Assembly (NCBI GenBank): GCA_934178475.1
Contig: CAKPQH010000003.1
Span: 50,315-114,314 of the forward strand
Direction of reading: 5' to 3'
DNA from: an uncultured Clostridia bacterium
Lineage (GTDB): Bacteria > Bacillota > Clostridia > TANB77 > CAG-508
DNA length: 64,000 bases
Shown: piece by piece, positions 12,075 to 57,017 of the stretch
Numbering within the stretch: the stretch's first letter is position 1
Layout of the letters: every line of letters starts with the position of its first letter
The notes under the pieces: generated by a model
The model's input: the letters and a program-made list of their open reading frames with translations, nothing else
Told to the model about the DNA's origin: nothing
Database searches by the model: none
Made by a program: the position numbers and the translations under genes

Positions 12075-12110
12075 AGAGCAAGAAATTTTAATTTCAAGCT
12101 CTTTTTTTTT
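12075..12110. terminator. Bidirectional rho-independent terminator between convergent vanZ-like and xpt
   Basis: Hairpin agagc...gctct followed by T10. Confidence 0.5.
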
Positions 12111-12709
12111 TAATCTATGAATTCTATTTTTTCTTTAGACATGTGTTTTATTCTAGCAAGAGAGTAAACATCATATCCAAGCGAATCTAATTTTTGTCTT
12201 CCTGGTTGAAATGATTTTTCAATAACTATACCAATACCTGATACAGATGCATTTGCTTGATTTACTAAATTTATAGCTCCTAAGGATGCTTTTCCATTAG
12301 CTAGGAAATCATCTATTATTAATATATTGTCGTTTTCTGATATATATTTTTTAGAAAGTGTTAAATTGTATTCGGTGTTTTTAGTAAATGATTTTACTTT
12401 TGTTTGATAAAAGTCACTTTTTAATATTTGAGATGTTTGCTTTTTTAATATAACAAGAGGTACATTTAATTCTAAAGCTGTCATAAGAGCTGGCGCAATT
12501 CCAGAACTTTCAATTGTAAATACTTTTGTTATTTTTTTGCTTTTAAAGTATTTTGCAAATTCAAATCCTATTTCTTTCATCAAGAATGGGTCTACTTGGT
12601 GATTTAAAAAGCTATCTACTTTTAATATATTTTCACTTAGTATGATTCCATCTTTCTTTATTTTTTCTTTTAATAATTCCATGATAACCTCCATATAAAA
12701 TAATAACAT
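12110..12709 (-). CDS. xpt: Xanthine phosphoribosyltransferase
   Basis: PRTase motif [14 protein letters not shown] and a typical Xpt N-terminus ([15 protein letters not shown]...[11 protein letters not shown]). The true start is probably the internal Met (MELLKEK). Confidence 0.8.
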
Positions 12710-21758: not shown

Positions 21759-22517
21759 ATGTACTTTCATGGAGTTAATATTGGCTACTATCTTGTAGCT
21801 GCTATAGTTGGACTTTTTATGGGTGAGTTTGTATCTTGGATGAATAAAAGACTTCCTGAATATAAAAAAGTTTTTTCAAAAGATTTAATAAAAGAATATA
21901 AAGAAAATTTTACTCCAAATTATATATTAATGATAATAACAGCTGCCATATATGTTCTTTTAATTTATAAATTTGGAATAAAAAATACTTTTATAGAAAA
22001 TTTAGAATTAATAAAATTTTTGATTTTAACACCAATGTTATTATCAGTTGTAATAATAGATTATAAATTACAGATAATACCTAATAGATTAAATTTAACT
22101 ATGTTTGAGGTAGGTATTGTTATTGCATTTATATATGGTTTATCAAATATTGCTATAGGAATTAATATGTTACTTGGAATGTTTGCTGGTGGTGGAATAT
22201 TCTTAATGATAACATTATTAGGTGGTTTGGTTTATGGAAAAGAAGCTATGGGACTTGGTGATGTTAAACTTATGGGAGCTTTAGGACTTTATTTTGGTTT
22301 GGCAAATATTGTTGTAATAGCTTTGGTATCTTTTTTAATAGGTGCTGTTTTGAGTATTATTTTACTTGCTACTAAAATAAAAAAGATGGATGAATATATA
22401 CCTTTTGGACCATTTATAGTTTTAGCAACATTTATATCAATATTTATACCATATGATATATTAGTAACAGCTTTATACAATATTTTTACATTAGGACTTT
22501 ATAGTAAAAACCATTAA
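21759..22517 (+). CDS. Type IV prepilin peptidase (A24 family)
   Basis: Polytopic membrane protein with the conserved catalytic-Asp contexts IDYKL and GLGDVKLMGALGLYFG. Confidence 0.65.
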   Translation: MYFHGVNIGYYLVAAIVGLFMGEFVSWMNKRLPEYKKVFSKDLIKEYKENFTPNYILMIITAAIYVLLIYKFGIKNTFIENLELIKFLILTPMLLSVVIIDYKLQIIPNRLNLTMFEVGIVIAFIYGLSNIAIGINMLLGMFAGGGIFLMITLLGGLVYGKEAMGLGDVKLMGALGLYFGLANIVVIALVSFLIGAVLSIILLATKIKKMDEYIPFGPFIVLATFISIFIPYDILVTALYNIFTLGLYSKNH

Positions 22518-27067: not shown

Positions 27068-27164
27068 AATCAAAAAGTAAAAATATTATATTTTTATTGA
27101 CATTTTCTATATATTAATGTAAAATATAGAAAGTAAAATAAAAACGATGAAAAAGAGGAGTATA

Positions 27165-27390
27165 TTTATTAAGGTTTTTAGAGAATAGAAGTCAGTGGCT
27201 GAAAGCTTCTTAAATTAAGATAAATAGAAGGTAGCTTTGGAGTTGATATGGTGAATTTAATAGTAGCTATATTCGTTTAAGCAACGTTAAATGCTAAATG
27301 AGATGTTATTAATAGTTTTTAATTAATAATAATTAAGGTGGTACCGTGATTAGTCGCCCTTATGTTTTTTAAACATAGGGGCGTTTTTGA
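27165..27390 (+). ncRNA. T-box riboswitch leader (tRNA-Val-responsive) upstream of valS
   Basis: Stem I AGAGA motif near 27180. A candidate GUC specifier is at about 27191-27193. The conserved T-box sequence AATTAAGGTGGTACCGTG is at 27331-27348. A terminator hairpin (cgccct...aggggcg plus TTTTT) is at 27355-27389. Confidence 0.75.
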
Positions 27391-27416
27391 TTTCTAATTT
27401 AAAAGGAGAAAGTTTT

Positions 27417-30074
27417 ATGGGAAAAAGTTTAGAAGGAAAATTTAATCCAAAAGAATTTGAAGAAGAATTGTATAAAAAGTGGGAGGATAATGGTTATTTT
27501 AAACCTAGTATGGATAAAAGTAAAAAACCATATTGTATAATGATGCCACCACCAAATGTAACTGGCAAACTACATATGGGACATGCATTAGATGATACAA
27601 TTCAAGATATTTTAATTAGGTATAAAAGAATGCAAGGCTTTGATTGTTTATGGCTTCCAGGAAGCGATCATGCTGCTATATCTACAGAAATGAAAGTAGT
27701 TCAAAAATTAAAAAAAGAAGGAAAAGAAAAGAAAGATTTAGGAAGAGAAGGATTTTTGAAAGAATGTTGGGATTGGACTTATGAATATGGTGGAATAATT
27801 CAAAAACAACAACGTAAACTGGGATGCTCATGTGATTGGGATAGAACAAGATTTACTTTAGATGATGGAATGTCAGATGCAGTTTTAGAACAATTTGTAA
27901 AACTTTATGAAAAAGGTTTAATATATAAGGGGACAAGAATGGTAAATTATTGCCCTAGTTGTAAGACTTCAATATCAGATGCTGAGGTAGAATATAAAGA
28001 AGAACCATCTCACTTATGGCATATTAGATATAAAATTGTTGGAGATGAAGAAAAATATGTAGAAGTTGCAACAACAAGACCAGAAACAATGCTTGGAGAT
28101 ACTGCTGTCGCTGTTCATCCTGAAGATGAAAGGTATAAAGATATAGTGGGTAAAAAATGTATTCTTCCAATAATGAATAAGGAAATTCCAATTATAGCTG
28201 ATGATTTTGTTGAAAAAGATTTTGGAACAGGATGTGTTAAAATCACGCCTGCACATGATATGAATGATTATCAAGCGGGATTAAGACATAATTTAGAAAT
28301 TATTGAGGTTTTTGATGAAAACTACAAAATGGGAGACTTAGTTCCAGAATACAAAGGTATGGATTTGATAGAAGCAAGAAAGAAAATTGTTGAAAAGTTA
28401 GAAAAAATAGGTGCTTTAGTAAAGACTGAGGATTATACACATAATGTTGCGAAATGTGAAAGATGTAAATCTACTATTGAACCTAAGATATCAATGCAAT
28501 GGTTTGTAAATATGAAAGATTTAGCTAAAAAGGCAGCAGACAGTGTAAGAGAAGATAAAACTAGGTTTATACCAAAAAGATATGAAAAACAATACTTTAA
28601 TTGGTTAGACAATATTCAAGATTGGTGTATATCTAGACAATTATGGTGGGGACATAGAATACCTGCATATTATTGTGAAGATTGTGGTAATATAAATGTA
28701 TCAAAAACTGCTCCTGAAAAATGTGAAAAATGTGGAAGTACACATTTACATCAAGACGAAGATACTTTAGATACATGGTTTAGCTCTGCTTTATGGCCAT
28801 TTTCTACACTTGGTTGGCCAAATACAGAAAGTGAAGATTTTAAACGTTTTTATCCTACAAATGTTTTAGTCACAGGATTTGATATTATTACTTTCTGGGT
28901 TTCAAGAATGATGACTCAAGGTTTAGAATTTACAGGAATAGAACCTTTTAAGGACGTTTTAATACATGGAATTATTCGTGATAGCCAAGGAAGAAAGATG
29001 TCTAAAACACTTGGAAATGGTGTGGATCCATTAGAGGTTATTGATAAATATGGAGCTGATAGTTTAAGATTTTCAGTAATTTCAGGAACAACAATGGGAA
29101 ATGATATTAAATATATGCCTGAAAAATTAGAACAAGCATCAAATTTTGCAAACAAAATATGGAATGCAGCTAAGTTTATAATAAACTCAAATGTTGATAA
29201 AAATGATATAATAGAATTTTGTAACAATGTATATGACTATGAAAAATATACTTATAATGAAGAATTATTATCTATAGAAGATAAATGGATTTTAAATAAA
29301 TTAGATAAATTAATTGTAGATGTAACCAAAAATATTGAAAACTATGATTTAGGTATAGCTCTTGATAATATATATGGGTTTATAAGAGATGAATTTTGTG
29401 ATTGGTATATTGAAATGGTAAAACCAAGATTATATAGTGATGATTATGAAACAAAAGTTGCAGTATGTGGCATTTTAAATTATGTATTTGGTGCATCATT
29501 AAAATTATTACATCCATTTATGCCATTTGTAACAACAGAAATATATAGTGATTTGGTAACTTATAGTGATAAAGATTTAATGGTATCAAAATGGCCTAGA
29601 ATAAAAACAGAATTCATTTTTGATAAAGAAGAGAATTTGGCAGAAACATTAAAAGAAATAATAGTAGAAGTACGTAATATTAGAGCAAAGATGAATGTAC
29701 ATCCTTCTAAAAAAGTTAGACTAATTTTTGTAACTAATAAATATAAAGATGAAATAAATATGTCTAAAGAATTTATTATGAAATTAGGATTTGGAAATGA
29801 AGTTGTTGTTCAAGCTAACAAAAATGGTATTGGAGATAATGCTATTAGTATTATAAAAGATGGAATTGAACTTTATATGCCGCTTGAAGGTTTGGTTGAT
29901 TTAGAGGAAGAAGCTAAACGTAAAGAAGAAGAAAAAAAGAAAATAGAGTTTGAAATTCAAAGAGCAGAAAAAATGCTTTCGAATCCAGGGTTTGTTAATA
30001 AAGCACCACAAGCAAAAATTGATGAAGAAAAAGCTAAACTTGAAAAATACAAGGAAATGCTTAAAAACTTTTAA
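27417..30074 (+). CDS. valS: Valine--tRNA ligase
   Basis: HMGH (class I HIGH), KMSKT (KMSKS), and the C-terminal coiled coil. The start is placed at the ATG after the aaaggagaaag RBS. The ORF track begins at an upstream TTG inside the T-box terminator. Confidence 0.92.
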   Translation: MGKSLEGKFNPKEFEEELYKKWEDNGYFKPSMDKSKKPYCIMMPPPNVTGKLHMGHALDDTIQDILIRYKRMQGFDCLWLPGSDHAAISTEMKVVQKLKKEGKEKKDLGREGFLKECWDWTYEYGGIIQKQQRKLGCSCDWDRTRFTLDDGMSDAVLEQFVKLYEKGLIYKGTRMVNYCPSCKTSISDAEVEYKEEPSHLWHIRYKIVGDEEKYVEVATTRPETMLGDTAVAVHPEDERYKDIVGKKCILPIMNKEIPIIADDFVEKDFGTGCVKITPAHDMNDYQAGLRHNLEIIEVFDENYKMGDLVPEYKGMDLIEARKKIVEKLEKIGALVKTEDYTHNVAKCERCKSTIEPKISMQWFVNMKDLAKKAADSVREDKTRFIPKRYEKQYFNWLDNIQDWCISRQLWWGHRIPAYYCEDCGNINVSKTAPEKCEKCGSTHLHQDEDTLDTWFSSALWPFSTLGWPNTESEDFKRFYPTNVLVTGFDIITFWVSRMMTQGLEFTGIEPFKDVLIHGIIRDSQGRKMSKTLGNGVDPLEVIDKYGADSLRFSVISGTTMGNDIKYMPEKLEQASNFANKIWNAAKFIINSNVDKNDIIEFCNNVYDYEKYTYNEELLSIEDKWILNKLDKLIVDVTKNIENYDLGIALDNIYGFIRDEFCDWYIEMVKPRLYSDDYETKVAVCGILNYVFGASLKLLHPFMPFVTTEIYSDLVTYSDKDLMVSKWPRIKTEFIFDKEENLAETLKEIIVEVRNIRAKMNVHPSKKVRLIFVTNKYKDEINMSKEFIMKLGFGNEVVVQANKNGIGDNAISIIKDGIELYMPLEGLVDLEEEAKRKEEEKKKIEFEIQRAEKMLSNPGFVNKAPQAKIDEEKAKLEKYKEMLKNF

Positions 30075-34235: not shown

Positions 34236-35417
34236 ATGAGTAAAAAAACAATAAGGGATATTGATTTAAAAGGTAAAAAAGTATTGGTAAGATGTGACTT
34301 TAATGTGCCAATGGACGAAAATCAAAATATTACAGACAATAGAAGAATTGTTGCAGCTTTACCAACAATAAAATATTTGTTAGAACAAAATTGTAAAATA
34401 ATATTAGCGTCACATTTAGGAAGACCAAAGGGAGAATTTAAACCAGAATTTTCTTTAGCACCAATTGCCAAAGAATTATCAAAATTATTAGGTAAAGAAG
34501 TAATTATGGCAAAAGATGTTATTGGAGAAGATGCTACATCAAAAGCAAATAACTTAAAAGAAGGAGAAATCTTACTCCTTGAAAATGTAAGATTCCATAG
34601 AGAAGAAACAGATAATGATACAGAATTTGCTAAAAAACTTGCATCTATGGCAGAAATATTTGTAAATGATGCATTTGGAACAGCTCATAGAGCACATGCT
34701 TCTACAGAAGGCGTAGCACATTTCTTGCCAGCTGTATCAGGATTTTTAATTGAAAAAGAGTTAAAATTTTTGGGAGATGCTTTAAATAATCCTGTAAGAC
34801 CTTTTGTTGCTATTTTAGGAGGAGCTAAGGTTTCTGATAAAATAGGAGTAATTGATAGCTTATTAGATAAAGTTGATGTTTTAATGATTGGTGGAGGAAT
34901 GGCATATACATTCTTTAAAGCACAAGGATATGAAGTAGGTAATTCTTTATGTGAGCCAGATAAATGCGATTTAGCTAATGAGTTAATGGAAAAAGCTAAA
35001 AATAAAGGTGTTAAATTAATTTTACCAGTTGATACTGTTGTGGGAAAAGAATTTAAACCAGATACTGAAAGTAAAACTGTTGCATGGACAGACATCCCAG
35101 AAGGATGGGAAGGATTTGATATAGGAGCTAAAACTATAGATATATTTAAAGATGAACTTAAAAAAGCTAAAACAGTAATTTGGAATGGACCTTTAGGATT
35201 ATTCGAATTTGACCAATTTGCTGTTGGAACAAATTCTATAGCAAAAGCTTTAGCTGAAATTGATGCCACAACTATAATAGGTGGAGGAGATTCAGCAGCA
35301 GCAGTAGAAAAAGCAGGATTAGCTGATAAAATGACACACATTTCTACAGGAGGAGGAGCTTCATTAGAATTCCTAGAAGGAAAGAAACTTCCTGGAATAG
35401 AAGCTTTAATGGATTAA
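34236..35417 (+). CDS. pgk: Phosphoglycerate kinase
   Basis: Typical N-terminus ([12 protein letters not shown]) and full-length match. Confidence 0.92.
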
Positions 35418-35449
35418 GATAAAAATATTTTGTAAAGGAGAGAAATATT

Positions 35450-35653
35450 ATGGGAACGAAAGAAACAAAAACAAGTAATAAAAAGAATGCTAATAGTAAT
35501 GAAAATTCATCAATGAAGGTTTTAATAGCTATGATTATATTATTTGTAATCGTTTTAGGAGTAGTTTTATTTTACTATTATCCTAAAAACAAAGCTTTAA
35601 AAGATAATACGAGTAATAAAACTGTTACAATAAATACTGTTAATAGTAAGTAG
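35450..35653 (+). CDS. Small single-TM protein (67 aa) between pgk and tpiA. Hypothetical
   Basis: It has an RBS aaaggagag and one hydrophobic helix. There is no homology I can name. Confidence 0.3.
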   Translation: MGTKETKTSNKKNANSNENSSMKVLIAMIILFVIVLGVVLFYYYPKNKALKDNTSNKTVTINTVNSK

Positions 35654-35678
35654 TATTTATCTATAAGGGGGAATTGAT

Positions 35679-36431
35679 TTGAGAAGAAAAGTAATTGCAG
35701 GAAATTGGAAAATGAATATGCTTCCAAATGAAGCTATATCTATGATAACAAATTTAGCACCTTTAGTTAAAGATTCAGAAAATGAAGTTGTTTTGTGTAT
35801 GCCATATGTAGATTTATTTTATGGATTACTTACAGTTCAAGATACAAATATAAAAGTTGGTGCACAAAATATGCATTTTGAAGAAAAAGGTGCATATACA
35901 GGAGAAGTTTCAGGAAAAATGCTAAATTCAATTGGAGTTGAATATGTTATAATAGGACATTCTGAAAGAAGACAATATTTTAATGAAACTGATGAAACTG
36001 TAAATAAAAAAATAAAAGCCGCTTTTGCAAATAATTTAAAACCAATAGTCTGTGTTGGTGAGACATTAGAACAAAGAGAATCTGGAGTTGCTTTTGATAT
36101 TATAACTGCTCAAGTTGAAAAAGCATTTGAAGGACTTGATGAAAAGAAAGCAGAAAAAACAATAATAGCATATGAGCCAATTTGGGCGATAGGAACAGGC
36201 AAGACGGCAACTAAAGAAGATGCAAATGAAGCTTGTCACAAAATACGTGAGAAGATTGCTGAATTATATGGAAAAGATGTAGCAGAAAAAATAATAATAC
36301 AATATGGTGGTAGTATGAAACCATCAAATGCAAAAGAACTTTTAGAAATGCCTGATATAGATGGAGGACTAATAGGAGGAGCAAGTCTAAAACCGGAAGA
36401 TTTTTCTAAAATAGTTAATTATAATAAATAA
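35679..36431 (+). CDS. tpiA: Triosephosphate isomerase
   Basis: AGNWKMN and [11 protein letters not shown] motifs. Confidence 0.92.
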
Positions 36432-36465
36432 ATGTAGCAAAGAAAGATTTAGGAGGAATTTAACA

Positions 36466-38004
36466 ATGGAAAACAATGTAACAATGCTAATGATATTAGA
36501 TGGGTTTGGTAATAATTCGAATAAAGAAGGAAATGCAGTTAAACTTGCTAATACACCTAATATTGATAAACTAATGAAAAAATATCCAACAACACAAATT
36601 GCAGCAAGTGGCTTGGCGGTTGGATTACCAGAGGGACAAATGGGTAATTCAGAAGTTGGTCATACAAATATCGGAGCTGGTAGAATTATATATCAAGAAT
36701 TAACAAAAATAACAAAGTCAATAGAAGATGGAGATTTTTTTACAAATCAAGAGTTTATAAATGCGATTGAAAATTGTAAAAAGAATAATTCAAAATTACA
36801 CATTTTAGGATTAGTATCTGATGGAGGTGTTCATAGTCATAATAGACATTTATACGGTCTTTTAGAAATGGCAAAAAGAAGAGATTTTGAAAATGTGTAT
36901 GTACATTGTTTCTTAGATGGAAGAGATACTCCTCCAGCATCAGCAGAAAATTATATAGTTGAATTAGAAGAAAAAATGAAAGAAAAAGGAATTGGAAAAA
37001 TTGCGACATTATCAGGAAGATTTTATAGTATGGATAGAGATAAACGTTGGCAAAGAGTTCAAAAGGCATATGATGCAATGGTCAATGGAGAAGGTATAAA
37101 ATCAGGAAATCCTATAAATGCAATTGAAAGTTCTTATCAAAAAGAAGTTTTTGATGAGTTTGTTGAACCTACAGTTATAACTAATAGTGAAGGAAAGCCT
37201 CTTGCTACTATAGAGGATGGAGATTCTGTAATATTCTTTAACTTTAGACCTGATAGAGCAAGAGAAATAACAAGAGCTATTGTAGATCCTAACTTTGATG
37301 GTTTTGAAACTAAAAAAATTAATACTTATTTTGTATGTTTTACAAGTTATGATGAAACTATGCCTAATGTGCATATTGCTTTTGAAAAAGAAGCAATAAA
37401 AAATACTCTTGGAGAAATAGTAAGTAAGCATAATTTGAAACAACTTAGAATTGCTGAAACTGAAAAATATGCTCATGTAACATTTTTCTTTAATGGTGGA
37501 GAAGAAAAATGTTATGAGGGAGAAGATAGAATATTAGTTCCATCTCCAAAAGTTGAAACTTATGATATGAAACCTGAAATGAGTGCATATGAAGTAACTG
37601 ACAAGGTTGTAGAGGCTATAAAATCTGGAAAATATAATTGTATAATATTAAATTATGCAAACCCAGACATGGTTGGACATACAGGAAATTTAAATGCTGC
37701 AATAAAAGCTATTGAAGCAATTGATGAATGTGTAGAAAGAGTTTATGAAGCAATAGAAGAAAAACATGGTAATTTAATGATAACTGCTGATCATGGAAAC
37801 GCAGAACAAATGATTGATTATAAAACAGGAGAACCTCAAACAGCTCATACAACAAACTTAGTGCCATTGGTGCTTATAACTGAAAATGAAAATATAAAAT
37901 TACATGAAGGTAAACTTGCTGATTTAGCACCTACAATATTAGAATTAATGAATATTGAAAAACCTGTTGAAATGACAGGAGAAAGTTTAATAGAGAAGGA
38001 ATAG
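36466..38004 (+). CDS. gpmI: 2,3-bisphosphoglycerate-independent phosphoglycerate mutase
   Basis: MILDGFG...NSEVGH and ADHGN motifs. 512 aa. Confidence 0.92.
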   Translation: MENNVTMLMILDGFGNNSNKEGNAVKLANTPNIDKLMKKYPTTQIAASGLAVGLPEGQMGNSEVGHTNIGAGRIIYQELTKITKSIEDGDFFTNQEFINAIENCKKNNSKLHILGLVSDGGVHSHNRHLYGLLEMAKRRDFENVYVHCFLDGRDTPPASAENYIVELEEKMKEKGIGKIATLSGRFYSMDRDKRWQRVQKAYDAMVNGEGIKSGNPINAIESSYQKEVFDEFVEPTVITNSEGKPLATIEDGDSVIFFNFRPDRAREITRAIVDPNFDGFETKKINTYFVCFTSYDETMPNVHIAFEKEAIKNTLGEIVSKHNLKQLRIAETEKYAHVTFFFNGGEEKCYEGEDRILVPSPKVETYDMKPEMSAYEVTDKVVEAIKSGKYNCIILNYANPDMVGHTGNLNAAIKAIEAIDECVERVYEAIEEKHGNLMITADHGNAEQMIDYKTGEPQTAHTTNLVPLVLITENENIKLHEGKLADLAPTILELMNIEKPVEMTGESLIEKE

Positions 38005-38006
38005 GA

Positions 38007-38681
38007 ATGCTTAGAACTACGAAATCTATGAAAGAAAAATATGAACAGATACAAAGCTGTTTATTTGATATAATACCTGAAAAATGGGAAGAAATATATT
38101 TATATACATCTGTAATCGAAATTAATAAAAGATTATCTGGAGAATTATATTTTTATTATCTTCCCAAAGGGTTTATAAGAAAAAAATTAATTAATGTCTA
38201 TGAAGTACCATCTAGATTTAATATTGATGAAGAACAATATATGAAATTAGTAAAAAAATTATTTGATGCTATAAAAAGTTTGAGGCAAGATTTTGTTGAT
38301 ACTGAACAGAAAATATGGACTAATTTAACTATTGTTGTTGCTAATTGTAGGTTTAAAGTAGAATATGGTTATGAACCAATAAAACTTACAGAAGAAGATA
38401 CAAATAGAAGACATATAATATGGAAATATAAGTATCTAGGGTTAGGTGGAGAAATAAAAGAAGAAAGAAAAATATTAGATAGGTATTTTTCAAAGGAAAT
38501 GATAACGGAACCCAAGAAAGAAGTTTATGAGGCAGGTTTATATTTAAAAAAAGTAAATAATATAATAGATTTTGATAGAGAACAAAAAGAGGAATTTGTT
38601 CGCGATGACGGCATTGAAAAAACAGAAAACAATAAAGAAGAAAATGTAAAAAGGAAAAGAAATCAAATTCTAAATGATTGA
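38007..38681 (+). CDS. YezG/EsaG (DUF600)-like immunity-protein-family member with a C-terminal extension
   Basis: The N-terminal pattern IPEKWEEIYLYTSV...GELYFYY closely resembles the IPxEWEKVY...GEVFFxY signature I recall for DUF600/YezG. It starts 3 nt after gpmI. Confidence 0.4.
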   Translation: MLRTTKSMKEKYEQIQSCLFDIIPEKWEEIYLYTSVIEINKRLSGELYFYYLPKGFIRKKLINVYEVPSRFNIDEEQYMKLVKKLFDAIKSLRQDFVDTEQKIWTNLTIVVANCRFKVEYGYEPIKLTEEDTNRRHIIWKYKYLGLGGEIKEERKILDRYFSKEMITEPKKEVYEAGLYLKKVNNIIDFDREQKEEFVRDDGIEKTENNKEENVKRKRNQILND

Positions 38682-38744
38682 TATTTAAATAAGAGAAAGA
38701 CTTATTTTTATATAAAATACGTAAAACTGAAAGGAGCAATTAAA

Positions 38745-39437
38745 ATGATTTATTCAAAGGAATTAGAAGGAATGTGTTGTGTAGCAAAAGGAGTTGACCA
38801 TGGACCAGCACCAATTCCAGAAGAAGGAAAATGGGTAAAAGCTAAAGAAATAAAAGATATTTCTGGATTAACACATGGTATAGGATGGTGTGCACCACAA
38901 CAAGGTGGATGTAAACTAACATTAAATGTAAAGGAAGGAATTATACAAGAAGCTTTAATTGAGACTGTAGGATGTTCAGGTATGACACATTCAGCAGCTA
39001 TGGCAGGAGAAATTTTAACAGGAAAAACTATATTAGAAGCTTTAAATACAGATTTAGTTTGTGATGCTATAAATACTGCTATGAGAGAATTATTCTTACA
39101 AATAGTATATGGTAGAACTCAAACAGCTTTCTCAGAAGGAGGTCTTCCAGTAGGTGCTGGACTTGAAGATTTAGGAAAAGGACATACAAGTCAAGTTGGT
39201 ACTATTTATTCAAGTACTTTAAAAGGACCAAGATATTTAAATCTTGCTGAAGGATACATAGTAGAATTAGGATTAGACAAGGATGATCAAATAATTGGAT
39301 ATAAATATGTTCATATTGGAAAAATGATGGATAGTATCAAAAAAGGAATTGATCCAATGGAAGCTATAGAAAAAGCTTCTGGAACATATGGAAGATTTGA
39401 CGAAGCAGTTAAGAAAATAGATCCAAGAAAAGAATAG
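38745..39437 (+). CDS. IscU/NifU-N-like-domain protein, partner of the GGGtGRT protein
   Basis: GCKLTLNV...ALIETVGCSGMTHSAAMAGEILTGKTILEA resembles the IscU scaffold core. Confidence 0.4.
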   Translation: MIYSKELEGMCCVAKGVDHGPAPIPEEGKWVKAKEIKDISGLTHGIGWCAPQQGGCKLTLNVKEGIIQEALIETVGCSGMTHSAAMAGEILTGKTILEALNTDLVCDAINTAMRELFLQIVYGRTQTAFSEGGLPVGAGLEDLGKGHTSQVGTIYSSTLKGPRYLNLAEGYIVELGLDKDDQIIGYKYVHIGKMMDSIKKGIDPMEAIEKASGTYGRFDEAVKKIDPRKE

Positions 39438-39496
39438 AATTAATAATTTAGATATCACATGGTTAGTACACCATACAAATTTAAGGAGGAATAAAA

Positions 39497-40498
39497 ATGG
39501 CAGTAACATTTGAAAGTTATGAAAGAAGAATAGACCAAATAAAACCAGTTATGGAAAAGTATGGAATTAAAGATTTTGAAGAAGCATTAAAAATATGTAC
39601 AGATAAAGGTTTTAATCCATATGAAATAGTAAAAGGAATACAACCAATATGTTTTGAAAATGCATGTTGGGCATATACATTAGGAGCAGCTATTGCTATA
39701 AAGAAAGGTTGCACAAAAGCTCATGAAGCAGCAAAAGCTTTAGGAGAAGGATTACAAGCATTCTGTATACCAGGTTCTGTTGCAGATGACAGAAAAGTTG
39801 GATTAGGACATGGAAATTTAGCATCAATGCTTTTATCAGAAGATACAAAATGTTTTGCATTTTTAGCAGGACATGAAAGTTTTGCAGCAGCAGAAGGAGC
39901 AATTGGTATAGCTAAATCTGCTAATAAAGTAAGAAAAACACCTTTAAGAGTTATCTTAAACGGATTAGGAAAAGATGCAGCACAAGTAATTTCAAGAATA
40001 AATGGATTTACATATGTAAAAACTGATTTTGATTTCTATACAGGAAAAGTAAATGTAGTAGAGGAAATACCATATTCAGATGGTGAAAGATCAAAAGTTA
40101 GATGTTATGGTGCAAATGATGTTAGAGAAGGAGTAGCTATAATGTGGCTAGAAGATGTAGATGTATCTATTACAGGTAACTCTACAAACCCAACAAGATT
40201 CCAACATCCAGTTGCAGGTACATATAAGAAAGAAAGAATTGAAGCAGGAAAGAAATATTTCTCAGTTGCCTCAGGTGGAGGAACAGGAAGAACTTTACAT
40301 CCTGATAATATGGCAGCTGGACCAGCTTCTTATGGTATGACAGATACTATGGGTAGAATGCATTCAGATGCTCAATTTGCAGGAAGTTCATCAGTTCCAG
40401 CACACGTTGAAATGATGGGATTAATAGGAATGGGTAATAACCCAATGGTAGGCGCTTCAGTTGCAGTTGCTGTTGCAGTAGAAGAAGCTATGAAATAA
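39497..40498 (+). CDS. GGGtGRT-family protein, conserved and of unknown function
   Basis: It contains the literal signature SVASGGGTGRTLHPDN. Confidence 0.6.
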   Translation: MAVTFESYERRIDQIKPVMEKYGIKDFEEALKICTDKGFNPYEIVKGIQPICFENACWAYTLGAAIAIKKGCTKAHEAAKALGEGLQAFCIPGSVADDRKVGLGHGNLASMLLSEDTKCFAFLAGHESFAAAEGAIGIAKSANKVRKTPLRVILNGLGKDAAQVISRINGFTYVKTDFDFYTGKVNVVEEIPYSDGERSKVRCYGANDVREGVAIMWLEDVDVSITGNSTNPTRFQHPVAGTYKKERIEAGKKYFSVASGGGTGRTLHPDNMAAGPASYGMTDTMGRMHSDAQFAGSSSVPAHVEMMGLIGMGNNPMVGASVAVAVAVEEAMK

Positions 40499-40595: not shown

Positions 40596-41906
<1,311 letters not shown>

Positions 41907-41988
41907 TATAAAAAATAACTAATTTTAAGTATAAATTTCCTCTAATTGTAAATAATACAATTAAAAGTTGATAGGAGGAATTTATATT

Positions 41989-42789
41989 ATGAGAAGAGAT
42001 ATAAGAAGACAAAAAAGAATGGATAATACAGTTATTTTGAGTATTGTGTGTGCAATATTAATTTTAGTTGGAATAGTAACATATGTTATTAAAAATTATT
42101 TAGAAAAAGAAAATAATTCAAGCTTGAATTTGCAAGAGGATCTTGCAATATTAGAAAATGCTGATATAAAAGATACAAGTACTGAATATGGTAAAACTGT
42201 TGAAGAATCTAAAGAAGAGATTATAGATGGTGAAACTTTAAAAGAAGAAAAAGATTCTACTAATACTAGTAAAGCAGAAAATACAACTTCTACTAGTAAG
42301 AAAGCAGAAACTAAAAAAGAAGAAAATAGTACAAATGTTGTAACTACTAAACCTGTTCAAGAAGAAAAGAAAAAAGAATTAACATTCAAAGCTCCAGTAA
42401 AAGGTGAGATTTTAAGAGAATATGCAGTTGAGAATTTAGTATATTCTGAAACTTTAAAAGAATGGATAACACATAATGGTATTGATATAAAGGCAGATAA
42501 GACAACTGTTGTAACAGCAGCAGCACCTGGTAAAGTATATGCAATAAAAAATGACCCTAGATATGGCCTAACTGTTATTATTGAACATGATGATGGATTT
42601 AAAACAGTATATTCAAATCTTTTAACAGCTGAATTTGTGGTTGAAGGTGAGAATGTAGAAGAAGGTCAAACAATCGGTACAGTTGGTAGCTCAGGTGCTT
42701 TTGAAATAAGTGATGATTACCATTTACATTTTGAGATGTTAAAAGATGATGCATATGTAAATCCAACAACATATATTAATTTTGATTAG
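41989..42789 (+). CDS. M23/LytM-family metallopeptidase-domain membrane protein (N-terminal TM, Lys/Glu/Thr-rich linker). Possibly SpoIIQ-like
   Basis: C-terminal LytM domain (HNGIDI, GKVYAI, HLHFEM). The SpoIIQ idea is a guess based on architecture only. Confidence 0.6.
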   Translation: MRRDIRRQKRMDNTVILSIVCAILILVGIVTYVIKNYLEKENNSSLNLQEDLAILENADIKDTSTEYGKTVEESKEEIIDGETLKEEKDSTNTSKAENTTSTSKKAETKKEENSTNVVTTKPVQEEKKKELTFKAPVKGEILREYAVENLVYSETLKEWITHNGIDIKADKTTVVTAAAPGKVYAIKNDPRYGLTVIIEHDDGFKTVYSNLLTAEFVVEGENVEEGQTIGTVGSSGAFEISDDYHLHFEMLKDDAYVNPTTYINFD

Positions 42790-43048
42790 TATTATTGAAA
42801 TGTAATGAAATTGTAAAATAAATGTAAAAGTAATGTTGTTGACAAAAGGTAAAAGAATATGTAAAAATAGATGTAGAAAGAAAAAAAGTAAAAAATGCAA
42901 AAAGTAGAAAATACGTATCTCCTGACGCTCTAAGAGAAAAAACAATAATTTATTAAATGAAGCAAATAGAACAAATATAAGAAATAAGGCTAGCTTATTG
43001 TTAAAATGGCAATAAGTTTTTAGTCTTATTAAGGAGGATAAGATAGAA

Positions 43049-44327
43049 ATGAAAAAAGTATTAAAAAATGTAAAAGGTATAACATTAATTGCTTTAGTAA
43101 TTACTATAATCGTGTTATTAATATTAGCAGGTATATCAATAAGTATGATATCAAGTCAAGATGGAATATTAACGAAGGCAAAAGATGCAAAGTCTCTAAT
43201 GAAAATAAAAACAGAAGAAGAATTGGTACAATTAGCAGTACATAATGCTTATATAGAAGAAGAAGGAGATTTTGAAAAAGAAACAGCAGAAGAAGAAATA
43301 AAAAAGAGTTTGGTCGAAAACGGTTTAAGTATTACAGGAGATAATTTTAAAAAAGTAAATGAAAAATGGTATTATGTAAGCAGTTTAGGAAAAAACTATG
43401 AAATTAATAAAGATGCAAATGTAAGTATAGTAGAAGAATTACCTAAAATTGATGGTTTTATTGATGGAATATTATATTATAACGGAGAACCTTTTTCTGG
43501 TGACTGGTGGTATAGTCCGGAAGACAAAATTCAAAATCCGCCAAGTATATTCCTTATAAATGGAAAATATGCAAAATATCAAGAAGGTAAGATAGATGAG
43601 GGGTGGAGCATTGATAATTCATATTATATGTTTGGAGAACTTTACACTGGTATTGTAAGACCTACTGGAGGTTGGTACTATGGAAGATTAGTTAATGGCG
43701 AAATGGAAGTTCCAGCTCGGACCTAACGGAGGAGCTTATGATGCTAATTCTTTGATTGTAAATAATGGTAAGAGATTTGATGGAATTGCATATATGGCTG
43801 GTTATAGAAGTTCTATGTATTCTGAAGTAATAGATGGATTATTGCAAAAAACATTATATTCTTGTTTGCTTCCAACAACAGAAATAGAAGTTATAGAAGA
43901 AGATGAAAAAGGAAGAAAGAAACGTAGAAAGAAAAAAATAAAGGACATAAAAGAGGGAGACAAGGTATTATCAGTAAATCCAGAAACGGGAAAACTTGAA
44001 GAAGATGTAGTAATATATGCAGACGGAGATGAAAATAAAAAATATAATAAATTTGAAATATGGACATTTAATGATGGAACAGAAGTAAAAACACTTCATA
44101 AACATAGATTTTATAATATAGAAAGACAAGATTTTGTGTATATACAAGAATGGAATATAGGAGAACATGGATATAAAGAGAATGGAGAAATTATAGAATT
44201 AATAAGACATAAAGTGGTAAATGAGGAAGTTCAACATTGCACGATATTTACAGAAAAATGGAATAATTATTTTGCTAATGGAGTATTGACAGGAAATAGA
44301 AATTCTATAAAAATGAAAATTTTATAA
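43049..44327 (+). pseudogene. Cassette copy 1: pilin-like-leader protein with WYY cell-wall-binding-like repeats and a C-terminal Hint-like domain. It is interrupted by a +1 frameshift near 43695-43726
   Basis: Two overlapping ORFs lie in different frames (43049-43726 and 43695-44327). The N-terminal 35 aa are near-identical to 45117-46907. The second ORF carries a Hint block A (CLLPTTEIEV). The intein F/G-like end is degenerate (NGVLTGN instead of VHN). Confidence 0.5.
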
Positions 44328-44343
44328 TATATGAAAGTATAAA

Positions 44344-44387
44344 AAAGAACTCTAATTGGATAAAGCATCTAATAAGAGTTCTTTTTT
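44344..44387 (+). terminator. Rho-independent terminator after cassette copy 1
   Basis: aagaactct...agagttctt plus T6. Confidence 0.6.
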
Positions 44388-44395
44388 AGGATTTT

Positions 44396-44519
44396 ATGCA
44401 GATTTGTTTTCACTTTTATTTAGTTTTTCATATTCTTTACATTTAATTTTATAATCCATTTGCATACATAAATATTTGTAATAACTATATGCTTGCTCAT
44501 ATCTGTTATTATTAAACAT
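44396..44519 (-). pseudogene. Truncated copy (C-terminal 41 aa) of the small convergent ORF found intact at 46992-47210
   Basis: The reverse-complement translation MFNNNRYEQAYSYYKYLCMQMDYKIKCKEYEKLNKSENKSA is about 90% identical to the C-terminus of the 72-aa protein. Confidence 0.45.
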
Positions 44520-44720
44520 GATGATGAATTTAAAACAGTATATTCAAATCTTTTAACAGCTGAATTTGTGATTGAAGGTGAGAATATAGAAGAAGGTCAA
44601 ACAATTGGTACAGTTGGTAGTTCAGGTGCTTTTAAGATAAGTGATGATTATCATTTACATTTTGAGATGTTAAAGGATGATGCATATGTAAATCCAACAA
44701 CATATATTAATTTTGATTAG
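44493..44720 (+). pseudogene. Duplicated 3' fragment (last about 66 codons) of the M23 peptidase gene
   Basis: About 94% aa identity to residues 200-273 of the 41989-42789 product. There is no plausible start and the track 'start' is a TTG. Confidence 0.75.
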
Positions 44721-44876
44721 TATTATTGAAATGTAATGAAATTGTAATATAAATGTAATATAAAAATAAAATAGAATATTATTGACAAAACGTATAAGAG
44801 TATGTAGAATTATATGTGATAAGAAAAGAGGTAAAAAATGCAAAAGATAGAAAAACATGTATCTCTTGACGCTCTA

Positions 44877-44904
44877 AGAGAGAGAGAGAGAGAGAGAGAG
44901 AGAG
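44877..44904. repeat. (AG)14 dinucleotide microsatellite in the 5' leader of cassette copy 2
   Basis: Read directly. The homologous position in copy 1 (about 42928-42940) reads agagaaaaaacaa. Confidence 0.95.
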
Positions 44905-45116
44905 CAACAATTTAATAAATAAAATAAATAGAATAAAGATAAATATAAGGAATAAGACTAGCTTATTGTCAAAATGGCAATAGGTTTATAGTTTTATTTT
45001 TGCGTTTTTTTGCCAAGAATGGAAGGGAGGAAAAATATATAGAATGGAAGAATAATAATCATAGTAGAATGAATAATAAAAATAATAAAGTAAAGGAATA
45101 AAAAGCTAAGGAGGAT

Positions 45117-46907
45117 ATGATGAAAATGAAGACGGGATTAAAAAATGTAAAAGGTATAACATTAATTGCATTAGTAATTACAATAATTGTGTTATTAATA
45201 TTAGCAGGTGTATCAATAAGTATGATATCAAGTCAGGATGGAATATTAAAACAAGCAGCAAAGGCAAAACTTATGCAAGAGATAGCTCAAGTAGAGGAGC
45301 TACTCAACTTAAAAGTATTAGAAATATATTCAGCAAATTCGGACAATTTAGACAATGTAACAAATGGAACAATAAAAACAGCAGTAATGACAGAGATAGG
45401 TAAAATGGGATATGAGACAGAAGAGAAAACTACAACACAAGCAACAGTAAAAGGACTATTAATTCAAGATTCAACAGGAGCAAATATTGAAAATGTAAAT
45501 TTAATACAAAATGGAGAGCAGATTATAACAATCAAATTAGATACAGAAGGAAATACAAATTCAAAAACATATGTAATAATACAAAGTAAGAAATTTGAAA
45601 TTACGATAAATGACGGAACAGTAAAAATATCTAGAGAAGAGTACATAGATCAATCAGAAGACCAAGAAGCATATCAAATAAAATTAACACCACCAACAAC
45701 GGGTACTAAAATATATGTTGAGAATAATGAAATAACAGAGGAGACTAATATAGCAGATAATACAAATATAAAAGTCAAGGCAGGAGACAGCACAGGAACA
45801 TTTAATTTTAACGTACAAGAGTCCAAAAGTGGAACTTCAAGAGAGGTAAGTGTTAATGTAGAAGCTAATCAAGCATATGCTACGAAACTAACTATAGGAG
45901 TAAAAGATAATGCAGAAGCGACAATTACACCAGAAGGGACATTACAATTACAGGCAACGATAGAGCCACTAAGTTCGACAGACACAGTAACTTGGAAAGT
46001 TGAATCAGGAGATGGAACAATAAGTGATACAGGATTGTTAACAGCAAATAGTACTGCTACAGCAGGAAGTAAGATAAAAGTTATAGCAAAATGTGTAAGA
46101 GCAGATAATACAACATCAAATGTTCAAGGAACAATAGAAATAATGGTACAAGAAGAACTAATAGATATGAGTTCTTTTTATATTCAGCAGTCTAGTGAAA
46201 CTGCCCCATTATCTTATACAATTTCAGGTGACAGCCATGGATATGATATATATTATGCTCGAATGGGTATTCCGGTTGGTAGTTTAGATGAACTTATTGA
46301 ACATGAGAAAATTTATATGCCAGGAACTCAATTTACTGGGGGAAATAGTCATGAATGGTTATATGTATGGCTTTCGAAAGATGGTACAAATGTAAAATCT
46401 CAAATAAAAGTATTTGCAACTACGGTGTGGATGTGCTTTACAGAAGATACGTTGATAGAAACATTAAATGGTAGCCAAAAGATAAAAGATATTAAAATAG
46501 GTGAATTGGTATATAGCTACAATGAAAAAAGTAATAAAGTTGAGTTGAAAAAAGTTACAAATACATATATTCATAGAATAGAAGCTAATCTTTGTAGAAT
46601 AAAGGTGGGAAATGACGTTATAGATAGTACAACAAATCATCCATATTTTGTTAAAGATAAGGGATGGGTACTAGCTAGTAAATTAGAGAAAGGCGATAAT
46701 CTTATGGATGTAGGAGGTCAATCACTAATTGTTCAAGAAAATTCAATTATTAATAATGCTATAGTAGATGTATATAACTTTGAAGTTGAAGGGAATCATA
46801 ATTATTTTGTTGGCAAATCTTGTGTATTAGTGCATAATGCACCAGATGTTATTAACTGTTCATATGTAGGAACGAAAGAATTTGGAGATATTGTAACATT
46901 TGATTAA
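45117..46907 (+). CDS. Cassette copy 2: pilin-like N-terminal leader/anchor, central Ig-like (Big_2-type) domain region, and a C-terminal Hint/intein-like (BIL-like) autoprocessing domain
   Basis: The N-terminus is MKTGLKNVKGITLIALVITIIVLLILAGVSI. A Big_2-like segment reads TITPEGTLQLQATIEPLSSTDTVTWKVESGDGTISDTGLLTANSTATAGSKIKVIAKC. Intein blocks are A CFTEDTLIETLNG, B TTNHPYF, and F/G VYNFEVEGNHNYFVGKSCVLVHNA. A 22-aa tail follows. Confidence 0.65.
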   Translation: MMKMKTGLKNVKGITLIALVITIIVLLILAGVSISMISSQDGILKQAAKAKLMQEIAQVEELLNLKVLEIYSANSDNLDNVTNGTIKTAVMTEIGKMGYETEEKTTTQATVKGLLIQDSTGANIENVNLIQNGEQIITIKLDTEGNTNSKTYVIIQSKKFEITINDGTVKISREEYIDQSEDQEAYQIKLTPPTTGTKIYVENNEITEETNIADNTNIKVKAGDSTGTFNFNVQESKSGTSREVSVNVEANQAYATKLTIGVKDNAEATITPEGTLQLQATIEPLSSTDTVTWKVESGDGTISDTGLLTANSTATAGSKIKVIAKCVRADNTTSNVQGTIEIMVQEELIDMSSFYIQQSSETAPLSYTISGDSHGYDIYYARMGIPVGSLDELIEHEKIYMPGTQFTGGNSHEWLYVWLSKDGTNVKSQIKVFATTVWMCFTEDTLIETLNGSQKIKDIKIGELVYSYNEKSNKVELKKVTNTYIHRIEANLCRIKVGNDVIDSTTNHPYFVKDKGWVLASKLEKGDNLMDVGGQSLIVQENSIINNAIVDVYNFEVEGNHNYFVGKSCVLVHNAPDVINCSYVGTKEFGDIVTFD

Positions 46908-46991
46908 AACTGGTAACCAATGTATTGACAAGAAGAGAAAAATTCTAAACTAGATAAGATAGCTTAGAAATTTTTTCTCTTTTTTTATTAT

Positions 46992-47210
46992 TTATGCAGA
47001 CTTATTTTCATTTTTATTCAATTTTTCATATTCTTTACATTTAATTTTATAATCCATTTGCATACATAAATATTTGTAATAACTATATGCTTGCTCATAT
47101 TGCATTATTGGGTTAAACATAGGGTCTTTATATATATCGTTCATATCAAAATTATTTGGTATATTACCATAAGGTGAATATCCTTGAAATTCATTAAAAT
47201 CTTTTTCCAT
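46992..47210 (-). CDS. Small Tyr/Met/Asn-rich protein (72 aa) convergent with cassette copy 2. Function unknown
   Basis: It has an RBS aaggattgattt upstream on the minus strand. A truncated paralog sits after cassette copy 1. Confidence 0.4.
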   Translation of the reverse strand: MEKDFNEFQGYSPYGNIPNNFDMNDIYKDPMFNPIMQYEQAYSYYKYLCMQMDYKIKCKEYEKLNKNENKSA

Positions 47211-55807: not shown

Positions 55808-56830
55808 AAAAAATACTTATCAGAAGCTGAAGGAGATGAAAATGCAAAAGTTATAAAGTATAATGGAAGAAATTACCTAGTATCAGATGATGGAACATTA
55901 AAACAAGTAACATGGTATGTAACAATAAATTCTGAAGGAAGATATGTGGTGACAAATGGGAAAAAGGAAACGGAAAAAGTAGAAATTCCATTAGGAACAA
56001 CAATAAATTATGATCCATATACAGGTGTAGAAAGTTCAAAACTTACAGCGACAACAGAAACTGAAAAAACAGGAAAAGATACTCAAACGTATACAATATC
56101 AAATAATGAAGCGCAAAAATTAATATGGCAAGTGTTTGGAACAGATGATGATGGAAATATTTTAATAATGCCAACAACAAATGCAAAAGATCCTACAGGG
56201 GCAACACAGTATATGGCAATGGGAAACACAGATCCAACAATAGCAAGAAATGCAGGGCAATATGCAGCAGAGGAAGTAAATAGAATATGCTCAATATATG
56301 GATATGGAAAGGGAGCAAAATCAGCAAGAAGTATGCAGATTCAAGATATAGATAAATTAACAGAATTTGATAAGACAACATATCAACCAAAACTGGTAAA
56401 TGGCTATGGACATAATGTAACATATAGTATAAATGAAACAGATGGAAATGTGTATTGTAGTTGGTCAGGAACAACGGGGCCTCAAAAAACAAGTTATAAA
56501 AAATTAGCATATTTAAAAGGAAATGAATGGATATCTTTAGAAAAAGGACAATCTGTAACAATAACGGGTAATTTTTATGGTTATAGAGGGAGTAAATGAT
56601 TTGATTACTAAAAATACTCTAAATCAATCTTATCGGCTTACTTCCTCTTATGTTATGACACTTTCAGGATGTCTTTTTTATGGAATACCTGTTGTAAGTA
56701 ATTTTAGTGTAAGTGGATGTAGCTTTTTTTTATTCATATGGTTTTGAAAATGACAGTATTTCTGGAATTCGTCCTGCTGTTTCTCTTAAGCCTGATGTTA
56801 ATCTTAGTGATTCAGGAGACGGTACTTTGA
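55808..56830 (+). pseudogene. Decayed gene region. A long ORF has no plausible start (the track uses a GTG at 55946) and is followed by at least two frameshifted fragments. One shift is at a T9 run at 56724-56732
   Basis: The open frame runs from 55808 without an ATG. After 56599 the reading continues in other frames, ending ...GIRPAVSLKPDVNLSDSGDGTLNIN*. Confidence 0.35.
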
Positions 56831-57017
56831 ATATAAATTAAACAATATGTAATATCAATTTTCATAATGAGCAAAGGTAGTATTAATACTGCTTTTGTTT
56901 TTTTGGTAGAAATAAGTTACCAAAATAGCATGGAAAAATTGGCAAAAAACATTTCTAAATATGTATTATATGATAAGATATCAAATATAAAAATAAAATA
57001 AGGAAAGAGGGAATGTG

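Follow-up and report, generated by a model that had tools for sequence, protein, structure and literature searches.

Can a protein whose N-terminus resembles that of a type IV prepilin, save for the loss of the acidic residue at position +5, still belong to a pilus system? This question is raised by two neighbouring genes, here called gene 1 and gene 2, in a 64,000-nucleotide stretch of DNA (the window) from an uncultured Clostridia bacterium (GenBank assembly GCA_934178475.1, contig CAKPQH010000003.1, positions 50,315 to 114,314 of the forward strand). The GC content of the window is low (about 22–31% in 2-kb windows) and Spo0A is encoded in it, indicating that the DNA comes from a sporulating Firmicute. 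The initial annotation of this DNA described the N-terminus common to both genes as a non-canonical class III leader of two cassette proteins, with Ile in place of Phe+1 and Ala in place of Glu+5. It was read either as a sign of processing without incorporation into pili or as a simple signal-anchor with no more than a likeness to a pilin leader. The analysis reported here shows that this N-terminus, far from being an oddity of two genes, is a variant form of the class III leader of type IV pilins found across a whole lineage, and suggests that the two window proteins are likely to be modular pilins. The coordinates of the features are collected in Table 1.

Both window proteins carry the sequence ...LKNVKG/ITLIALVITIIVLLILAG[I/V]SISMISSQDGIL, where the slash marks the predicted cut. 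The leader in front of it is short, basic and ends in Gly-1 (MKKVLKNVKG in gene 1, MKTGLKNVKG in gene 2), and the hydrophobic stretch of about 20 residues sought behind a prepilin cut site is present as 24 uncharged residues, ITLIALVITIIVLLILAG[IV]SISMI. No Glu or Asp was found at +5, which is Ala in both proteins, and both also have Ile in place of Phe+1, just as had been described. The codons concerned are 43076–43078 and 45153–45155 for Gly-1, 43079–43081 and 45156–45158 for Ile+1, and 43091–43093 (GCT) and 45168–45170 (GCA) for Ala+5, in gene 1 and gene 2, respectively. The two N-termini are identical at 36 of 37 residues, with a single Ile/Val mismatch and with longest exact runs of 24 and 12 residues. 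The near-identity reported by the initial annotation thus stands, whereas its count of 35 out of 35 does not, and a part of the identity within the window stems from a segmental duplication, as described below. A BLASTP comparison of the two gene products found 48 identical residues among the first 68 and nothing convincing beyond them, save the PT-HINT domain present in each.

For gene 2, the ATG at 45126, and not the one at 45117, is probably the homologous counterpart of the gene 1 start. This ATG has the same 11-nucleotide spacing from the AGGAGG Shine–Dalgarno (SD) sequence as in gene 1, and the repeat offset of 2077 nucleotides pairs it with position 43049; each leader peptide then has 10 residues, MK[K/T][V/G]LKNVKG. 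Gene 1 itself is most simply seen as one gene broken by a frameshift. Its second open reading frame (ORF) lies in another frame, which has a stop codon at 43689–43691, and is most likely the 3' part of the gene, the frameshift being placed by these ORF limits within 43692–43726. No obvious homopolymer run was seen in this interval. The frameshift could mark a pseudogene or be an assembly error.

The Pfam model N_methyl (PF07963, IPR012902) aligned in register with residues 6–30, which bears out the earlier description of this N-terminus as prepilin-like and in register with G/FTLIE. The scores were 14.8 bits for gene 1 and 17.0 bits for the gene 2 leader, while the gathering threshold of the model is 21.2 bits; a small pilin from the pilus operon of related genomes, introduced below, scored 20.8 bits. 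Among 79 large leader proteins, 4 reached an N_methyl E-value of 0.001 or less. Substitutions introduced in silico raised the score to 24.0 bits for A5E alone, 22.8 bits for I1F alone and 29.7 bits for both. As either single substitution lifts the leader past the threshold, it departs from the canonical motif essentially at those two positions. A PDB search with a profile of the small paralogues matched only type IV pilins, with Gly-1 placed on Gly-1, at marginal E-values (MshA 0.064, geopilin 0.18 and 0.92). We found no curated Pfam or NCBIfam model for this leader, NCBIfam giving weak GspG and PpdD matches only, and a literature search found no paper with the motif string ITLIALV. PilFind requires an acidic residue at +5 and would therefore be uninformative for Ala+5 leaders.

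The locus bears the marks of a tandem segmental duplication. Three pairs of repeats were aligned at the DNA level: 42569–42827 with 44500–44758 (95% identity), comprising the 3' end of an M23 peptidase gene and the intergenic region; 43030–43191 with 45107–45268 (88%), comprising the SD sequence and the leader; and 44380–44502 with 46978–47100 (92%), a 3' flank that includes the start of a small minus-strand ORF. Two truncated duplicates, 44493–44720 (parent M23 gene 41968–42789) and 44394–44519 (parent minus-strand ORF 46992–47210), are relics of the duplication that created both leader genes. Each copy of the 5' flank has, within a long 5' untranslated region, a promoter-like TTGACA site and a hairpin conserved between the copies, AGCTTATTG.CAAAATGGCAATA.G (42839–42868/44782–44810 and 42992–43018/44960–44986). 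In a promoter scan, the number of promoter-like sites across the region was at chance level, which makes the common TTGACA site no more than a lead. About 220 nucleotides upstream of the gene 2 start lies a perfect (AG)14 microsatellite (44877–44904), where the gene 1 counterpart has only two to three AG units; this run could act as a slipped-strand switch.

These repeats bring up the simplest explanation of the common N-terminus, namely that its identity merely reflects a tandem duplication or gene conversion that took place recently at this locus and has no functional meaning. The duplicated 5' flank, SD sequence, leader and 3' flank, at 88–95% DNA identity and with truncated copies of an M23 gene and of a downstream ORF among them, speak for such an origin. 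Nevertheless, over the 33 leader codons of the pair, four of the five nucleotide differences are synonymous and the fifth is the Ile/Val exchange, and the same peptide, written in different codons, recurs in thousands of unrelated loci and organisms. We therefore give this explanation practically no chance as a full account. Instead, we attribute the identity of the pair, which far exceeds what chance would give, to two sources, the local segmental duplication and purifying selection acting on the whole family.

The size of this family became apparent from an exhaustive profile search against 1.84 billion representative sequences, which gave 30,103 matches at E ≤ 1e-3 and 17,530 at E ≤ 1e-10. 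At 50% identity, the module with near-invariant Gly-1, Ile+1 and Ala+5 is thus found in no fewer than 17,530 protein clusters. A 77-residue query matched 3,019 clusters at 90% identity among short proteins, and a 210-residue query matched 7,106 of 8,000 scored candidates; the matches listed for these two queries carried no source-database names. No record matched the exact 596-residue sequence of the gene 2 product. When species-representative genomes were scanned, the leader turned up at no fewer than 402 loci, and 80 of these were retained for analysis. Nearly all of the retained loci belong to metagenome-assembled genomes (MAGs) of uncultured gut Clostridia or "Clostridium sp.", with human (Hadza, Nepal), rabbit, chicken and mouse among the samples. 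Several leader loci are found per MAG, and at least 11 distinct leader genes in the MAG CAKPMJ. A tblastn search of 50,697 phage records with the leader gave no match, which is weak evidence against a phage origin as the low-complexity filter may mask the helix.

The residues around the predicted cut hardly vary in this family. Among 118 leader ORFs of related genomes, Gly-1 was found in 117, Ile+1 in 116 and Ala+5 in all, with Lys or Arg at −2 in 97. The corresponding numbers for 216 metagenome proteins were 214 for Gly-1, 215 for Ile+1 and 215 for Ala+5, the single Glu+5 variant being P0004. The view of the leader as a deviation of two cassette proteins is thus not upheld. The length of the leader peptide ranges from 3 to 47 residues (median 10). 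Across the family, each invariant residue is encoded by three to six synonymous codons, and this free synonymous codon use points to purifying selection on the peptide and not on the DNA.

Several single loci of the family are worth recording. The rabbit-gut MAG locus L044 is syntenic with window positions 34236–40495 at about 45–94% amino-acid identity. At the chromosomal position corresponding to window 40617–46907, it has two different leader genes (L044:8218–11983), and the site seems to be a hot spot of leader-gene exchange or replacement. At 55946–56841, the window contains a leaderless, fragmented homologue of the passenger of a leader protein from locus L074 (30% identity over 212 residues), followed by a ...GIRPAVSLKPD... 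fragment in another frame; this is probably a decayed member of the family. The metagenome protein P0318 (706 residues) has two copies of the leader module, at about residues 8–45 and 391–444, which is probably due to two neighbouring genes being joined through a mistake in gene calling or sequencing; a genuine tandem fusion is the other option.

The same invariance bears on the proposal that signal peptidase I cuts the N-terminus after VSIA or SIS as it would a common Sec signal peptide, or else that the N-terminus is an uncleaved signal-anchor. This proposal draws on the missed N_methyl cut-off and the absence of Phe+1 and Glu+5, and the small residues at −3 and −1 (S-I-A or S-I-S) behind an 18-residue hydrophobic core formally fit a type I site. 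However, Sec signal peptides vary residue by residue, whereas in the present family some 30 positions do not vary among thousands of proteins that are otherwise unrelated, with free codon use and a hydrophobic run of 24 residues. Gly-1 after Lys or Arg also stays invariant in spite of leader lengths from 3 to 47 residues, and one substitution restores the Pfam pilin motif. Moreover, a cut at VSIA would strip the only plausible major subunits of the related pilus operons of their hydrophobic pilin helix, and the structural models described below predict one unbroken helix across the supposed type I site. A Sec signal is hence very improbable, and so is the signal-anchor suggested by the initial annotation, as a mere mimic of a pilin leader: the invariance reaches single residues, and the same leader heads the putative pilins of these operons.

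The operons were revealed by all-against-all clustering of the neighbouring ORFs combined with Pfam annotation, which placed small leader genes in one conserved operon at 13 related loci. The small leader proteins (127–168 residues) are encoded in one to three tandem copies and have exactly the N-terminus of the window proteins. The order of the operon is a 540-residue protein with a weak PilN match, two small membrane proteins, the leader-type pilins, a 271-residue PilD-like protein, two minor-pilin-like ORFs, PilB, PilT and PilC. The assignments are supported by the Pfam domains A24_N_bact (8.7e-30, PilD-like), T2SSE (1.9e-93) with MshEN (PilB), T2SSE (4.1e-45, PilT) and T2SSF (3.5e-27, PilC). 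An independent look-up of an abundant small protein, P0168 (loci L081 and L082), led to the same operon, here with only one pilin of this kind and with identical precomputed domains. An earlier regular-expression screen for a PilB-type Walker A motif near leader genes had found nothing, which proved to be a false negative.

Neither the operon loci nor the window yielded a canonical G-F-T-L-I-E pilin in a motif scan. As the small leader genes lie in complete pilus operons that have no canonical pilin, the GITLIAL N-terminus heads the only plausible major subunits in this clade. The small Ala+5 proteins thus occupy the major-pilin position of complete type IV pilus operons, and the loss of Glu5 cannot be taken, as it had been, for evidence of exclusion from pili. 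Operon and large leader proteins occur together in the same MAGs, namely CALXAV (operon locus L025 with L001, L011, L019, L023 and L033), CAUWEX (L028 with L007 and L047) and CALXEW (L041 with L002, L038 and L056).

The two minor-pilin-like proteins of the operon differ at position +5. One, with the motif KGFTGID/E and a weak ComGE match, is acidic there (Asp or Glu) in all 11 of 11 loci; its neighbour, KG[IV]TLI[ST]L, has Ser or Thr there, and the putative major pilins have Ala. In locus L012 the pair is encoded at 11795–12220 and 12226–12639, with orthologues in 10 other loci.

AlphaFold2 was used to predict the fold of a small paralogue and of part of a window protein. For the small paralogue P0086 (mean predicted local distance difference test score, pLDDT, of 84), the model has a helix at residues 5–69, a second one at 81–90 and a four-stranded sheet. 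For residues 1–210 of the gene 2 product (pLDDT 80), it has a continuous helix at residues 12–73 followed by four strands. Both predicted structures show the lollipop topology.

If the leader is cut as a prepilin leader, a peptidase must be available. The A24 prepilin peptidase gene pointed out by the initial annotation is real (PF01478, E 3.9e-16). Its product retains both catalytic Asp residues (IID101Y and GLGD168VKL) and is devoid of the four-Cys zinc-finger methylase segment. An hhalign comparison with PilD gave a probability of 98.2% with both Asp residues aligned, though the PilD reference used in our alignments was not a database entry, and comparisons based on it are only a lead. Its orthologue in locus L045 is 72% identical and stands in the same HAD–A24–PepP context with efp next to it, about 2 kb from two leader genes.

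The PilD-like protein of the operon shows a complementary picture. It retains the methylase zinc finger and the first Asp, and has G-I-L at the position of GxGD (L012:10967–11779 and ten others of alignment A3, as well as L081:10517–11332). No Peptidase_A24 match was obtained for it, the precomputed data included. An invariant Asp176 lies nearby and could be catalytic. A PDB profile search with this protein returned zinc fingers only, and a direct hhalign comparison of the two A24-type proteins was uninformative (0.4% probability). Taken together, the residues retained suggest a division of labour, with the methylase encoded in the operon and the peptidase elsewhere in the genome. Peptidases lacking a methylase domain are known from Tad systems (PMC10191384).

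The leader proteins fall into two size classes, small ones of 127–168 residues and large ones of 220–1,154 residues. The passengers of the large class are of surface or adhesin types: BspA leucine-rich repeats (LRR, LRR_5; 13 proteins), GLUG (6), dockerin (5) and FGE-sulfatase-like domains (5), along with fn3, Big_3, DUF285 and RCC1. In the gene 2 product, a pilin-like module within residues 1–176 is combined with PT-HINT at residues 446–575, which is the layout of a modular pilin. The PT-HINT domain (PF07591) was detected with E-values of 6.8e-22 in gene 2 and 7.4e-07 in the 3' ORF of gene 1.

PT-HINT is also found in polymorphic toxins, and the gene 2 product has the domain at full length, with Cys1 and the terminal His-Asn. 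The relatives of its C-terminal half are PT-HINT proteins as well, many of them with Ntox or Tox domains after HINT. Unlike in polymorphic toxins, only 21 (gene 2) and 13 (gene 1) residues follow HINT, and no Pfam toxin domain was detected there in either gene. There is also no co-oriented immunity-like gene downstream, as the ORFs that come next are either truncated duplicates or encoded on the opposite strand. A polymorphic-toxin cassette was therefore rejected. The closest relatives, P0220 and P0221, have a pilin-type leader, HINT and a tail of 23–27 residues; as they have the same layout, the short tail looks designed rather than truncated, and the combination of pilin module, HINT and short tail looks, from these sequences, like a recurring one. 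Since the residue after the HINT Asn is Ala, classical splicing is unlikely, while cleavage is possible. The tail motif AP....C.Y.G, after the terminal His-Asn, is common to the gene 2 product (46842–46904) and P0220.

Given the sequence features, the family, the association with pilus operons in related genomes and the peptidase gene, we consider it likely that the N-terminus is a genuine class III leader with an alpha1N assembly helix in a clade-wide form of pilin, and that the window proteins are modular pilins composed of a pilin module, a passenger and PT-HINT. From this we infer leader cleavage, methylation and filament incorporation in the following way. The protein would be inserted into the membrane with its 10-residue basic leader in the cytoplasm, as known prepilins behave. 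An A24 aspartic prepilin peptidase, for which the stand-alone gene in Table 1 is the best candidate in the window, would cut after Gly10 so that Ile becomes residue 1, and the methylase-type PilD-like protein encoded in the operon of the relatives may methylate the new N-terminus. The invariant helix ITLIALVITIIVLLILAGVS... would then anchor the protein and, judging by the operons of the relatives, serve as a handle by which the PilB/PilC/PilM–N machine lifts it into a filament made of the small subunits of 127–168 residues with the same helix. Bulky members such as the window pair may be placed at the tip of the pilus or along it, or else stay at the surface as helix-anchored proteins. With Ala+5 lineage-wide, assembly here could not rely on the usual salt bridge between Glu5 and the N-terminus.

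Several points weigh against the window proteins being modular pilins. In the systems studied, Glu5 is held to be necessary for assembly, and only a tip-capping subunit goes without it (PMC10191384). The window itself has neither pilus machinery nor a small pilin gene: the A24 peptidase is the only assembly gene seen in it, no ATPase or platform gene being found in a screen joined by Pfam annotation of part of the window. The operon evidence comes from related MAGs, at about 65–94% amino-acid identity of shared housekeeping genes. The window leaders fall below the N_methyl cut-off and match the NCBIfam pilin models weakly, a formal type I signal-peptidase site (VSIA/M or SIS/M) is present in the sequence, and gene 1 looks frameshifted. 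Furthermore, the 11 or more leader genes in one MAG are well above the usual number of minor subunits of a pilus, and everything beyond the sequence itself has been deduced.

The number of leader genes fits better with pilin-like processing without polymerisation, where the cleaved helix, possibly with the help of the pilus machine, would anchor a large ectodomain as in the Sulfolobus bindosome; this corresponds to the first option of the initial annotation. Besides the very many paralogues per genome and the 17,530 or more clusters at 50% identity, this explanation has on its side that the passengers reach about 1,150 residues with adhesin, dockerin or LRR domains, and that most leader genes are scattered among housekeeping genes outside the pilus operon. 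Moreover, there is an archaeal precedent (PMC3047682), and the loss of Glu5 should be less costly for a protein that never becomes part of a filament core. On the other hand, the helix is the same as that of the small operon pilins and goes well beyond the needs of an anchor, and the conservation of at least 30 near-invariant residues in spite of free synonymous change points to specific helix–helix or helix–machine contacts. In addition, modular pilins of similar size are known on pili (PMC8179133). We thus regard processing without polymerisation as the main alternative but unlikely, and the idea that the N-terminus makes the window proteins modular pilins as the better supported one. In either case, the notion of a common export or anchoring route for the two proteins, already drawn from their shared N-terminus, was correct.

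The closest known counterparts are the modular type IV pilins, e.g., Streptococcus sanguinis PilB and PilC, which were collected via IPR012902/N_methyl and for which presentation at the pilus tip was proposed (Raynaud et al. 2021, PMC8179133). As in those proteins, a pilin module at the N-terminus (class III leader, long alpha1 helix and small beta-sheet) is joined here to bulky modules of adhesin or lectin type in monoderm bacteria. Unlike in that set, where Glu5 is present, Ala+5 and Ile+1 are fixed, most members lie below the N_methyl signature and the expansion is much larger, with at least 11 genes per MAG. PT-HINT as an added module is not among the architectures quoted from that study.

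Natural subunits of the pilin family that have no Glu5 are known as the tip-capping minor pilins GspK/PilK/PilX, which are often the largest subunits and stand at the tip of the filament, while Glu5 forms a salt bridge to the N-terminus of the neighbouring subunit (PMC10191384). The leader proteins resemble them in the missing Glu5. In those systems, however, exactly one subunit goes without Glu5, whereas here the pattern is reversed: the putative major pilin and the modular pilins have Ala+5, and only one small minor-pilin-like protein is acidic at +5.

The Sulfolobus bindosome offers class III leaders on large surface proteins that form no filament, for which reliance on a peptidase like PilD and on a system like PilB/PilC has been reported (PMC3047682). 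Like the archaeal bindosome proteins, pilins and archaellins, the family studied here has a class III leader without Glu5 on many large extracellular proteins. Yet the leader consensus and the peptidase of the archaeal systems (PibD/FlaK type) differ from those of this bacterium, which has a PilB/PilT/PilC operon, and the likeness is that of a general pilin N-terminus. In the TANB77 lineage, a Tad-like pilus cluster with "pilin-like" single-transmembrane proteins was described in uncultured gut Clostridia with reduced genomes of low GC (Kim et al. 2024, PMC11680825). It resembles the present system as a conserved pilus locus of uncultured gut Clostridia, and the organisms concerned may belong to one broad group. 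Nevertheless, it consists of CpaB/TadZ/CpaE/TadA/TadBC, whereas the operon found here encodes PilM/N, PilB, PilT and PilC, and the GITLIAL leader is not in that paper. The first 12 kb of the window, looked through for such a Tad cluster, contain a polysaccharide synthesis cluster in its place.

Table 1. Positions of the leader genes, their parts, the duplicated flanks and the candidate processing enzyme in the window.
Feature	Position	Strand	Description
Stand-alone A24 prepilin peptidase	21759-22517	+	252 aa; PF01478 E 3.9e-16; candidate processing enzyme
Duplicated 5' flank, upstream copy	42569-43191	+	M23 gene 3' end, intergenic region with TTGACA promoter-like site and hairpin, SD sequence, leader; repeat families D1, D2, D4, D5, D6
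Gene 1, 5' ORF	43049-43726	+	225 aa; pilin-type N-terminus, then GW/WYY-rich passenger region
Gene 1 leader peptide MKKVLKNVKG	43049-43078	+	Short, basic, Lys-Gly end; predicted prepilin-peptidase cut after Gly10
Gene 1 hydrophobic alpha1N segment ITLIALVITIIVLLILAGISISMI	43079-43150	+	24 aa; Ala+5 codon 43091-43093; residues as in the family consensus
Gene 1, second ORF, overlapping in another frame	43695-44327	+	210 aa; PT-HINT residues 80-197 (43932-44285), 13-aa tail
Duplicated 3' flank, copy of 46978-47100	44380-44502		Repeat family D3, 92%; truncated copy of minus-strand small ORF 46992-47210
Duplicated 5' flank, downstream copy	44500-45268	+	Includes truncated M23 copy 44493-44720 and (AG)14 at 44877-44904
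Gene 2	45117-46907	+	596 aa; modular pilin-like: leader, alpha1 helix, beta-rich module, passenger, PT-HINT, 21-aa tail
Gene 2 leader peptide MKTGLKNVKG	45126-45155	+	Counted from the start aligned with gene 1
Gene 2 hydrophobic alpha1N segment ITLIALVITIIVLLILAGVSISMI	45156-45227	+	Ala+5 codon 45168-45170
Gene 2 predicted pilin-like module	45150-45644	+	Long helix residues 12-73, two short helices, four strands (100-176)
Gene 2 PT-HINT	46452-46841	+	Residues 446-575; begins at Cys (..VWMC/FTED), terminal VHN; PF07591 E 6.8e-22; then tail APDVINCSYVGTKEFGDIVTFD

Elsewhere in the window, the products of the polysaccharide biosynthesis cluster in the first 6.6 kb (16–6609) comprise glycosyltransferases of the GT4 and GT2 types, a flippase resembling Wzx and a protein of Wzz/tyrosine-kinase-like type. 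Behind this cluster lies a PD-(D/E)XK transposase-like gene (7309–8178), which recurs in 9 related loci. A T-box leader at 27138–27364 (108 bits, gathering score 93) lies upstream of an ORF of 895 residues (27387–30074). This ORF shares 71% identity with ORFs of L001 and L002 and appears to encode an aminoacyl-tRNA synthetase.

Glu5 is regarded as a near-universal hallmark of type IV pilins, and why assembly needs Glu5 and N-terminal methylation is a question of long standing. A very large natural Ala+5 family, together with an apparently split peptidase and methylase, would be a ready test case for this question. As most of the members tested lie below the N_methyl cut-off, signature-based pilin annotation probably misses them and thereby overlooks the surface proteome of these abundant uncultured gut bacteria. 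The invariant helix of 30 residues offers a simple means of finding that proteome.

Possible, though put forward only tentatively, is a wider picture in which this gut-Clostridia lineage has a major pilin without Glu5 and the alpha1N helix is an address tag that hands a dozen or more large adhesin-type proteins per genome over to the pilus machine. The Glu5 pattern would be reversed and the functions of PilD split, and self-cleavage of the pilin–HINT proteins could release or re-attach the passenger. If this picture is true, the type IV pilus system would be a general pathway of surface display in a monoderm bacterium and a bacterial counterpart of the archaeal bindosome.

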